A stretch of 64,000 bases of DNA, taken from contig JANNYA010000168.1 of the NCBI GenBank assembly GCA_031409855.1, positions 5,715 to 69,714 of the forward strand. Reading direction: 5' to 3'. How positions within the stretch are numbered: the first letter of the stretch is position 1; every line of letters starts with the position of its first letter. Of the stretch, positions 46,019 to 54,805 are shown in pieces. Source of the stretch: Rhodanobacteraceae bacterium (GTDB lineage Bacteria; Pseudomonadota; Gammaproteobacteria; Xanthomonadales; SZUA-5). Made by a program: the position numbers and the translations under genes. Under the pieces are notes generated by a model that was not told the origin of the DNA, ran no database searches, and saw nothing but the letters and a program-made list of their open reading frames with translations.

Positions 46019-49000
46019 ATGCGCTCATTCGCGCGCGCCGTTGCGGCGTTTCTATTATTGGTTTCGGCAGTTAGCCTGCATGCGCAAAGTTACACGCTAG
46101 GCGCGCCACCGCTCAGTGCCTGCAACGCCTCTGCGCCCGCTGCGTCGGGAAATTACGCATTCAACGCAGGGCGTTGGTATTCGCCGCAGCGCTTAGGCCC
46201 GAGCTGGGATTTTTTCTTTAACGACTTTGGCAATCTGGTCGCAATTTGGTACGGCTTTAATAATCAAGGCCATCCGGTTTGGTACATCTCTGAGGTCAAG
46301 CCGTTGCAAACCGACTCGGACGGCGGTCAACGCTGGCAATCGCGCCTGCATCGTACTTCACAGGTGAACGGTGCACCTTTTTTGAATGAAGCGGTGGGCG
46401 AACTTTACGTACGTATTCCGGCCAATTCGCCGGAAAAGATGGTGGTGAGCTGGAATTTTCTGCCGAATACGAACCTGAACCCGACCGATGTCAATGACGA
46501 CAAGATTGATTGCATCGTACGTCGCGTGGGAGAAGACACCTCCAGTGGTAACCAACGTACAGTCAATACTACCTATAGCGGTTTTTGGTATCCGCCCAGT
46601 AACTCGGGCTGGGGCTACAACGCCTTGGTTGTACCCCCTTCCACTCTGAACAATAACCAGTGGTTCGAGGAAAATACCATCCTCGTGTTTGACACCGTGG
46701 GCCAACCGGCCTGGGGACGTGTTTCTAGATCGACGCTAAGCCGCCCTGATGGTGCCATGACGGTGTTCTCCAGTAGCCAACCAACCGTCAGTTACTTAAC
46801 TTGGAAAACTGCAACCAACGTGAATGGTCGCGTGTTGAATGGCCCGTCTACCAATATAACCACTCCCAATTTAACCTTTGGCCGCAGCTACAGCAGCGCA
46901 AGCTCGGGAAATGTGTATTTGACTTGGAGTCAAATGCTTACCAATCCCACCAACAGTTCGCAGCGCGGTATCAACTTTAATCGTGGCACGCCCAGCACCC
47001 CGTTTGCGGTTGCAAAACTCACGTCTACGTTTGGGATTGTTGCCAACCCTTCCCCCTGCCAGGCGAGCGCCGGGCAAACGACTTGCCAAGTGGAGGTCGA
47101 CTGGGAAGCAGTGGGGGCGGTTTTAGGGCGCACGGGTAGACCCGCGCGGCGCTCAGTCAGCGTTAGCCCGAGTGGTACAGTGACATCAGGCAATTGGACG
47201 CAGTTACCTACAGCTGAGTTTCAGGGCTCGATGATGCAAAGCATTCCAGTCGGTACACGCTGGCAATATGGGATCGTAGACTTCAGTGTTAGTCCACCGT
47301 ATCCACTTTATTTCAGCAGTGAGGTGCGGGCATTGCCGGCGGATGCGGATATTGAAATACCCGATGATCCACGCAGCTCAACCGCCGCAGAATATGCGCA
47401 ACCCAGCGCCCTTGTCGGCGACTTAGCCGGGGCAACACCGATGCAAGCCGATGCTGAAGGCGCTGCTGCCAGCGTCAATATTCCGATCCAAATTCCACCC
47501 GGCCGACGTGGTATGCAGCCAAGCGTGAGCCTTAATTACTCCAGCCGCGCAGGTAATGGCATAGCAGGCATGGGCTTTAGCCTGTCGGCAAGTTCGTCCA
47601 TCTCGCGCTGCCCGCAAAGTCTGGCGACCGATGGTCAAGTCAACGCCGTGCAATTTACCAATGAAGATCGTTTGTGTTTGGACGGTCAACGCTTGATTGC
47701 TACTGTAGAGGGCACTTACGGCTTGGCGAACGCGCAATATAAAACTGAAATCGATAGCTACGTGTTGGTCACTCAGTTGGGCGCGAACTTGTCTGATGAT
47801 GGTGGCATCAAAGGCGCTGTCTATTTTGAAGTGCAAACCAAATCGGGCGAACGCCAGTATTTTGGTGCTGATCAATTGGGTGCCAGCATACGCAATGCGC
47901 GTGTCAAGCCCAGTGGCGCCATGAATGGCGCGCTGAACGGTGCCACCTTGAGTTGGCTGCTGGATACGCGCATAAATCGTTCGGGAAATTACATTCAGTA
48001 CGGTTACACCGTGTTTGGTTCGGGTGAGAATTTGCTGATTGCGATTACTTACACAGGTTTTGGCACTGATGTGGGTAGTCGGCAGGTGCTTTTTACTTAT
48101 GAAAACCGTCCAGATCGTTCCAGTAGTTATTTGGCGGGGGCATTGAATGAGCAAACCCAACGTTTGCTCAACATCCAAACCAAAGCCCCGATCAGTGATG
48201 CCCCCGGTACTGCAGCAGTTGTAGTACGAACCATCACGCCGAGCTATTCGACCTCAAATTACTCAGGCCGTTCAATTATGAATTCGGTGCAAGAGTGTTT
48301 TCCGGGCGGCCAGTGTATGCCCGCGCAAAAGTTTAGTTTTGCCAGTAATCGCGCACCGGAGCTAAACAAAAAACTGAGCATCGGTGGCGTTCCTATCATT
48401 TCAGAAGACCCAACTGCCACAGACTATATATCCAGCTTTAGTGAAATCGGCGATCTTGATGGTGACGGGAGTGTGGAATTTGGTGCCTCTGTGCGCAGAA
48501 CCAATCAATCAAGTTATGGTACTTCGTACTTTTTCAAATCTGACGCCAACACCCGGAGCTTTGGAATGGCTCAACCGGCAATAAGCCTGACCGGTGCCGC
48601 TGCCACGCACTTGCAAGATACACGCGGTGATTTTAATCGTGACGGTATTGCTGATTTGTTGTTAGTCGATAGCGCTGGCGTTCTGCAGGTTAAGTTTGGG
48701 AAGCCCGACGGCACCCTAGAGGCCCAGCAGCCCCTGATACTATCCCCGACTGCGCCGACCCTGCCTGACGCTCGGGTCAGTGATGTAAATGGCGATGGCC
48801 TAAGCGATTTGGTTCTGCAATATCGTCTGAGCAATCAAACTCGCTTGTTGGTATATGTCGCAACTAGCGCGACCAGCTATACCAGGGTCGCGGATCAGAC
48901 GGTCATCAGTGACCCCAACTATCAAGCCAGCATCGTACAAATTGCAGATTTTGATGGTGATTCGGCTTTGGATATCATGTTGGAAGACAGCATTATCAAT

Positions 49001-54805: not shown

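Follow-up and report, generated by a model that had tools for sequence, protein, structure and literature searches.

How does a cocoon-type toxin reach its target when it carries a secretory leader and no delivery partner is encoded near it? This question is raised by a gene in a 64,000-nucleotide stretch of DNA from a Rhodanobacteraceae bacterium (GenBank assembly GCA_031409855.1, contig JANNYA010000168.1, positions 5,715 to 69,714), hereafter called the window, to whose numbering all positions refer. A sequence-only reading had described the product as a fusion resembling the B and C components (BC) of toxin complexes (Tc), with a signal peptide, an unexplained N-terminal extension and no partner gene, and had called its delivery and extension possibly new. 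We lean towards reading the gene product as an antibacterial polymorphic toxin that is self-contained and belongs to the SpvB/propeller/RHS class (TcdB/TcaC-type, BC-fusion-like). The novelty lies in a conserved, unannotated module of about 440 residues in front of the toxin body; the class itself, and with it the arrangement, was already catalogued in 2012, and the question of delivery is one that the whole known class raises.

The toxin gene and its leader

An open reading frame (ORF) scan of the window gives a long plus-strand ORF at 45962..54805 when counted from an upstream TTG. The ATG at 46019 has the ribosome-binding site GGGGAG 8 nt upstream and, before that, an AT-rich intergenic stretch; from this ATG to 54805 the ORF encodes 2,928 residues and is genuine. 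Position 53902, where the sequence-only reading had placed the end, marks the final base of TDPTGY, a motif of the RHS core; the toxin ORF ends at 54805. Domains were called with the Pfam and NCBIfam profile libraries, and the features of the gene and its downstream neighbour are as follows (Ig, immunoglobulin; AF2, AlphaFold2; SPI, signal peptidase I).

46019..46087, + strand: predicted Sec (SPI-type) signal peptide, residues 1-23; n/h/c-region layout, heuristic sequence reading
46088..46798, + strand: N-extension D1, residues 24 to about 260; Trp-rich beta module with internal duplication
46799..47338, + strand: N-extension D2-D3, residues about 261-440; beta-sandwich / Ig-like in the AF2 model
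47465..48010, + strand: SpvB / TcaC N-terminal-type domain, residues 483-664; Pfam PF03534, E 4e-13
48452..49387, + strand: FG-GAP / integrin-like beta-propeller, residues 812-1123; Pfam FG-GAP_3 and FG-GAP (PF13517/PF01839)
49982..50413, + strand: TcdB_toxin_midN region, residues 1322-1465; Pfam PF12256, E 3.9e-11
50414..53695, + strand: RHS/YD-repeat shell, residues about 1466-2559; Pfam RHS_repeat (E 3e-13), NCBIfam YD_repeat_2x, TIGR01643
53696..53902, + strand: RHS-associated core with two Asp motifs (GRFYGVDP ... NNPLAGTDPTGY); TIGR03696, E 4.7e-15
53903..54805, + strand: variable C-terminal payload, residues 2629-2928 (300 residues); family similarity ends at the core
54795..55310, + strand: candidate immunity gene for a 171-residue lipoprotein; read from the sequence, no Pfam family

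The signal-peptide-like start described earlier is retained on a heuristic reading of the n/h/c layout. The leader reads MRSFARAVAAFLLLVSAVSLHA, followed by QS after the predicted cleavage point; its n-region has two Arg, Ala occupies position -1, and the h-region of 13 residues has a mean Kyte-Doolittle value of 2.5. It contains no lipobox. Comparable hydrophobic leaders are present in most full-length members of the family described below, the exceptions being a few with truncated or short N-termini. The claim that such a leader fits neither the Tc nor the type VI secretion route lost its force as an anomaly: the TcdB/TcaC class is already defined with a signal peptide (PMC3482391), so the leader is expected.

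A conserved module between leader and SpvB

The extension proved as unexplained as first described. No Pfam family was matched at E ≤ 1 by any of 27 extension sequences, NCBIfam gave nothing, and the extension family profiles produced chance-level matches only against PDB sequences. Known trafficking domains (PAAR, MIX, FIX), which would have accounted for the extension, were looked for with Pfam and none was found; likewise, no PAAR, DUF6531 or VgrG-binding match was obtained on the extension at E ≤ 10, and no vgrG or EagR neighbour was found among the scanned ORFs of the window. Word-indexed searches with the extension or its family profile gave one or two proteins. It was an exhaustive HMMER search of 1.84 billion proteins that exposed the family: 84 cluster representatives carry the extension, and for 35 the match has E<1e-10. 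At least 15 members are proteins of 2,700-3,300 residues that are collinear from leader to RHS core at 24-33% identity (BLASTP).

D1 carries the motif GxW(Y/W)xPxxxGxG ... (W)Y(T)YDxxGxPxW in the family alignment. The two copies of a GxWYxPxxxGWG module that had been noticed by eye correspond to a true internal duplication, which takes up roughly the first 210 residues of the extension, as judged by the match between the two halves of the alignment (hhalign probability 96.7%, E 4e-10). The only cysteines of the extension (C35, C165, C347 and C356) are all invariant in 11 full-length members, which fits two disulfides and an extracytoplasmic location.

Structure prediction followed by a Foldseek search, as suggested in the sequence-only reading, gave an all-beta model with no significant match. 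With the family alignment as input, AF2 modelled the whole extension at a predicted local distance difference test score (pLDDT) of 72 and a predicted template modelling score (pTM) of 0.69; the blocks 260-420 (D2-D3) were all-beta at pLDDT 74-94, and D1 alone had 12 strands at pLDDT 81.5 and pTM 0.81. Neither the whole extension nor D1 returned anything at E ≤ 1e-3 in PDB or BFVD. D1 gave weak calycin-like matches (lipocalin, nitrophorin, streptavidin) at TM 0.3-0.4, which are only a hint at an up-and-down barrel, and the C-terminal part gave local Ig-V-like matches (probability 0.9+, TMt 0.43-0.48). Separately, the GxWxxPxxxGxG segment of D1 (46163-46258) showed chance-level matches to MORN repeats, namely RSPH1 among PDB sequences (E 0.7, not relied on) and a Marseillevirus MORN protein by Foldseek (E 0.27); as a lead at most, this may point to a relationship with beta-hairpin repeats.

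The module varies in copy number and in company. The whole extension occurs as a tandem double copy before SpvB in P0002, P0003, P0005 and P0015; in P0007 and P0038 a partial copy is accompanied by a full one located further in. Among other proteins (P0026, P0048, P0050, P0060, P0071, P0079, P0067 and P0078), D1 is carried by reprolysin-like M12B metalloproteases and S8 subtilases in their C-terminal part, behind an FG-GAP_2 array, and also by a DUF11 surface protein. Its place in the proteases is the usual site of binding or retention domains in secreted enzymes. As judged from these occurrences, D1 is a mobile accessory domain of secreted proteins without database annotation. The four invariant cysteines, the all-beta models and the presence of D1 on secreted proteases suggest that the extension is probably a binding module outside the cell.

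The toxin body and the question of a delivery partner

From SpvB onwards the domain order given in the sequence-only reading (SpvB, six FG-GAP blades, RHS shell, core end motif) holds, with Pfam, NCBIfam and motif positions in agreement. The SpvB, propeller and TcdB_midN families (PF03534, PF13517/PF01839 and PF12256) all scored above threshold, and PF12255 (midC) was not reported in the Pfam scan of the toxin. The SpvB region of the family profile matched, among PDB sequences, SpvB 6p0x (E 2.7e-9) and YenB (E 1e-8). YenB residues 29-85 align with toxin residues 475-534, so that about 450 residues precede the canonical TcB start point, in line with the earlier statement that TcB proteins begin at SpvB. 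The propeller has six DxDxDG-type FG-GAP motifs, at residues 812, 871, 922, 977, 1049 and 1118, and integrin alpha propellers were matched by the family profile at E about 1e-4. With regard to the shell, the profile matched those of Rhs effectors of type VI secretion systems (T6SS; 7q97, 8qja, Tse5) and, with E 2.6e-23, the bacterial teneurin-like protein 9pt5, the E values ranging from 1e-22 to 1e-27, and no TcC chain was found at E ≤ 1e-3 in the same search of PDB sequences. By these matches TcC is more distant in sequence from the shell than the T6SS Rhs and teneurin-like shells are.

No TcA-, VgrG-, PAAR- or T6SS-like gene was found among the scanned ORFs of the 64-kb window, which agrees with the sequence-only reading; the scan covered ORFs of at least 140 residues and part of the small ORFs lying within 8 kb of the window's start or 2 kb of its end. 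No TcA, VgrG or PAAR gene was found beside the toxin homologues either, in seven distant loci with flanks of up to 10 kb. In these seven loci the toxin gene is stand-alone with housekeeping neighbours. Family and neighbourhoods together indicate that the stand-alone, leader-bearing design with the extension is conserved, and not an accident of one genome.

Two explanations that invoke a partner elsewhere have to be weighed against these results. The gene could encode a true Tc (ABC) BC subunit, directed at eukaryotic cells, which would dock on a TcA pentamer whose gene lies elsewhere in the genome. In favour of this are the TcB hallmarks SpvB, propeller and TcdB_midN, and the orphan TcC genes and BC fusions that have been noted at a distance from tcA, their delivery being unresolved (PMC7861908). 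We regard this as very improbable, since a Sec leader and a 440-residue module precede SpvB, the shell sequence is nearer to the T6SS Rhs/teneurin-like type, with no TcC chain matched at E ≤ 1e-3, and no tcA was found in eight loci. Moreover, the family has immunity-type genes and payloads of bacterial type (DNase with SUKH, deaminase; see below). The propeller, which in Tc toxins is the part that binds TcA, is here the least conserved part, and to our knowledge canonical TcB proteins have no Sec leader.

The other explanation is delivery as an Rhs effector by a T6SS, with the VgrG/PAAR partner encoded beyond the window. T6SS Rhs proteins are the structures that come closest to the shell profile, and one family locus (L003) has a separate DUF6531-RHS gene nearby, but the toxin has no PAAR, DUF6531 or VgrG-binding N-terminus and no T6SS genes were seen in any locus examined. 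The leader and the disulfide-type cysteines point to the periplasm or the exterior and are unfit for loading onto a cytoplasmic spike, so that this origin is scarcely credible. Leader, cysteines, immunity pairs and eight loci without partners thus disfavour both the TcA and the T6SS explanation.

Polymorphic tails, payload and candidate immunity gene

The RHS-associated core (NCBIfam Rhs_assc_core at residues 2560-2627) contains GRFYGVDP at residue 2591 (VDP 2596-2598) and TDPTGY at 2623 (DPTG 2624-2627), and D2597, P2598, D2624, P2625 and G2627 are invariant across 11 family members. By analogy with characterised Rhs/TcC proteins, autoproteolysis is predicted after DPTGY (residue 2628). BLASTP collinearity of the members ends at about the same residue, and beyond it follow tails of 230-350 residues that are mutually unrelated. 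Colicin-DNase/WHH, toxin-deaminase and several unassigned types are found among these tails. The Colicin-DNase/WHH tail (L003) is followed by a SUKH immunity gene, and the toxin-deaminase tail also has an adjacent SUKH gene.

The tail of the present toxin consists of a low-complexity linker of about 115 residues and a domain of about 185 residues, in which HEYAH (HExxH) lies at residue 2851 (nt 54569-54583). Against Pfam (E ≤ 10) the payload gave a single sub-threshold match, Peptidase_M78 (E 0.022); no sequence relative was found in PDB and no homologue in a word-indexed search. The payload is a putative Zn-metallopeptidase. The linker contains a near-perfect tandem duplication, LRKSANGAQDQ / RLKSANGAQDG, at window positions of about 54047-54112.

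The 171-residue ORF that follows begins with MMNKFLLCFFMLCLTG and a Cys, a lipoprotein signal (LCLTG followed by C), and its start overlaps the toxin stop codon (ATGATGAATAA). The ORF at 54795-55310 is translationally coupled to the toxin gene, and its product is likely to be a periplasmic immunity protein; a lipoprotein in this role implies that the payload would act in the periplasm. Tail and candidate immunity gene (53903-55310) have a GC content of 45%, compared with 54% for the rest of the gene and the window, which fits horizontal exchange of a toxin-immunity cassette. A small ORF directly 3' of the toxin gene is also present in five homologous loci (L003, L004, L005, L006 and L008). That of L003, which follows the DNase payload, is the SUKH protein, and the counterpart in L006 (8954-9499) is also a lipoprotein; immunity-position ORFs in other family loci appear to be cytoplasmic, as with SUKH in L003. 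In L007 a SUKH gene lies upstream of the toxin instead.

Tail polymorphism, the DNase/SUKH and deaminase pairs, the coupled lipoprotein gene, the HExxH payload and the pretoxin-HINT cassette further downstream (see below) point together to an interbacterial toxin and not to an insecticidal Tc component. A different possibility is that the protein serves mainly in surface adhesion or cell-cell recognition, or that it is an anti-eukaryotic toxin. Bacterial teneurin-like proteins, for which a role in social interactions has been proposed, do have Sec signals and adhesion domains at the N-terminus, together with a YD shell and a polymorphic toxin (PMC13018210), and the payload of the present protein has no assigned family. 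The coupled lipoprotein gene and the immunity pairs of the family, on the other hand, argue for self-protection from an antibacterial activity, and no NHL, FN-plug, BIG, TTR or TIP match was detected in the toxin with Pfam. We therefore consider such a function improbable.

Proposed mechanism and the role of the extension

On the observed architecture, family, tail polymorphism and neighbourhoods we build the following mechanism for a self-contained antibacterial toxin, in which cleavage, localisation, payload activity, immunity and extension function are steps that we infer. The precursor would cross the inner membrane via Sec, the shell would fold round the tail, and the aspartyl protease of the core would cut the tail free after DPTGY. 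The disulfide-bonded N-terminal module, lying outside the shell, would bind a surface ligand, which could belong to the target or to the envelope of the producer itself. The payload would be a metallopeptidase active in the periplasm of rival Gram-negative cells, the producer being protected by the periplasmic lipoprotein, and neither a TcA pentamer nor a T6SS spike would be needed. For passage of the protein of about 310 kDa across the producer's outer membrane the candidate routes would be the type II secretion system (T2SS), vesicles or lysis. In its most specific form, the extension and the fast-evolving propeller would constitute a built-in receptor-binding or docking device replacing TcA, with which the Sec-exported cocoon finds Gram-negative rivals alone and passes its payload across their outer membrane; we hold this form to be rather unlikely.

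Several points weigh against the mechanism. The peptidase assignment is drawn from the HExxH motif and the sub-threshold M78 match, the immunity role of the lipoprotein from the position of its gene, and the binding role of the extension from its context, Foldseek having recognised no significant fold. A folded BC-type cocoon is probably too large for the T2SS secretin, so that outer-membrane export is a weak point of the mechanism. The conservation pattern is a further point. The nearest relatives of the N-terminal part are found in metagenome-assembled genomes of a Lysobacterales (81%) and a Rhodanobacteraceae bacterium (78%), and in these two close relatives the extension is 75-89% identical whereas the propeller region 720-1320 is only 24-40% identical, with the SpvB region at 56-60%. 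Judged by these relatives, the source organism probably belongs to the Lysobacterales. The mosaic was obtained by comparing L001 10001-12367 and L002 2-4708 with window 46079-51271; the upstream flank of L001 has no nucleotide similarity to the window. It reflects either a stronger constraint on the extension, for example through contact with a conserved component of the producer, or recent exchange of the front end. A conserved extension next to a variable propeller weakens the idea of the extension as a variable receptor-binding domain, and is as compatible with a self-directed role (export or anchoring) as with target recognition, if not more so.

The rival raised in this way is that the extension is an export or retention device which engages a component of the producer (an outer-membrane translocon, a lipopolysaccharide or exopolysaccharide anchor, or vesicle cargo loading), while the hypervariable propeller recognises the target. 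Besides the mosaic itself, it is consistent with this that the extension always stands directly after the leader, sometimes in tandem duplicate, and that D1 is also carried by other secreted enzymes that must exit the cell. Against it, no conserved neighbouring translocon or anchor gene was found in eight loci, the pattern comes from two close relatives and could stem from one recombination event, and family-wide the extension is no more conserved than the body (both about 25-30%). We treat the export device as possible but doubtful.

Neighbouring genes and side observations

Downstream of the candidate immunity gene lies one further feature of the polymorphic-toxin kind.

55567..56859, + strand: orphan or remnant polymorphic-toxin cassette with a pretoxin-HINT domain, 430-residue ORF with TTG start; Pfam PT-HINT, E 1.8e-28

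The C-terminal region of this ORF has no assigned family, and the cassette, an orphan or a remnant, may be non-functional. It was considered as a recombination partner of the toxin gene and rejected, as it has no similarity to the toxin gene or to family members. The adjoining 139-residue ORF at 56714-57133 is probably a gene fragment; it resembles an internal part of a fatty-acid desaturase of the DesA family (E 2.4e-10, a match well short of the family cut-off).

The window has the character of an ordinary chromosomal region. The scanned ORFs elsewhere in it encode housekeeping, type IV pilus, regulator or surface proteins: HrpA, a sigma-54 activator, type IV pilins, PilC/PilW/PilX/PilY1, DPP-IV, an OmpA-Big_9 surface protein, a GGDEF-EAL regulator, an FG-GAP protein, TonB, DUF2339, YaeQ, gmk, yicC, a response regulator, APH, pyrB, pyrR and ruvX. 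Two of these have no established link to the toxin, namely a 408-residue protein (30145-31371) with six FG-GAP_3 repeats and a weak PliI-like match, and a 783-residue OmpA-family protein (25111-27465) with Big_9/cadherin-like repeats. At L003 3126-9291, a separate 1,390-residue DUF6531-RHS protein and an ISL3 transposase are encoded beside the homologue P0010, which suggests a toxin island in that genome.

Significance

Toxins of the SpvB/propeller/RHS type that bear a Sec leader occur widely among environmental bacteria. The present locus and its roughly 15-25 collinear relatives form a compact, testable example with a candidate toxin-immunity pair and a probable periplasm-acting payload, and the missing function in targeting or export is most obviously to be sought in the extension. 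Extension family and lipoprotein-guarded payload give a concrete handle on the delivery question, and the ligand of D1, once found, would also annotate the secreted proteases that bear this domain. If delivery independent of TcA and T6SS is true, it would represent a new route for cocoon toxins, resting on a D1 family with a previously undescribed fold; a cocoon that delivers cargo without TcA would also be useful for protein-delivery engineering.

Comparison with known systems

The closest counterpart is the 'TcdB/TcaC' trafficking class of polymorphic toxins listed by Zhang et al. 2012 (Biol Direct 7:18; PMC3482391, Table 1), which is defined by a signal peptide that precedes SpvB and an integrin-like propeller, together with RHS repeats and toxins of many types, and which occurs in many phyla; later toxin surveys use SpvB as a polymorphic-toxin trafficking domain. 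The present toxin shares with this class the leader, SpvB, integrin-like propeller, RHS region, variable toxin and stand-alone chromosomal setting, and it has a candidate for the adjacent immunity gene. Its sequence appears to place it there, with a heuristically read leader, SpvB and propeller followed by RHS and toxin, and among RHS polymorphic toxins in general, with a shell-length YD array, a two-Asp core and a variable C-terminus. It differs in the conserved, unannotated module of about 440 residues between leader and SpvB; the N-terminal add-on mentioned by Zhang et al. 2012 is a different one, ZU5 (PMC3482391). No report was found on how SpvB/propeller/RHS toxins exit a Gram-negative producer or enter a target.

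With the Tc cocoon (YenB/YenC, TcdB2-TccC3) the toxin has in common the SpvB N-domain, the propeller, the TcdB mid region and, as far as the sequence tells, an RHS shell whose core is an aspartyl autoprotease and which encloses a C-terminal toxin of about 30 kDa. The differences are the Sec leader, the N-terminal extension, the fusion of B and C, the candidate immunity gene, a shell nearer to Rhs and teneurin-like proteins and a propeller poorly conserved among relatives. SpvB thus appears to lie behind a leader and not at the extreme N-terminus, and no TcA partner was found in the window or beside the seven homologues.

T6SS Rhs effectors (RhsA, Tse5, Tre23, Rhs1) resemble the toxin in RHS shell and core and give the best sequence matches to the shell. 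They carry PAAR, DUF6531 or VgrG-binding N-termini and no Sec leader, whereas the present toxin has none of those N-termini.

WapA of Bacillus subtilis and Streptococcus suis is a Sec-exported, contact-dependent RHS-repeat polymorphic toxin with an immunity protein and does not need a T6SS. It differs from the present toxin in belonging to Gram-positive bacteria, in having cell-wall-binding domains and no SpvB/FG-GAP propeller, and in facing no outer-membrane problem. The bacterial teneurin-like proteins (BiTLP; Raoelijaona et al. 2026, PMC13018210) resemble the toxin in the Sec signal, the N-terminal beta domains before the plug and the related YD shell, and apparently also in a shell that encloses a cleaved polymorphic toxin and in associated immunity proteins. 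They have an FN-plug, an NHL propeller and a TIP domain, whereas the present toxin has SpvB, an FG-GAP propeller and TcdB-mid, and its N-terminal domains are unrelated to theirs; of the teneurin combination of FN-plug, NHL propeller and YD shell, the shell is the related part and the propeller is of the FG-GAP type. BiTLP and WapA may thus serve as working analogies for Sec-exported YD shell toxins.

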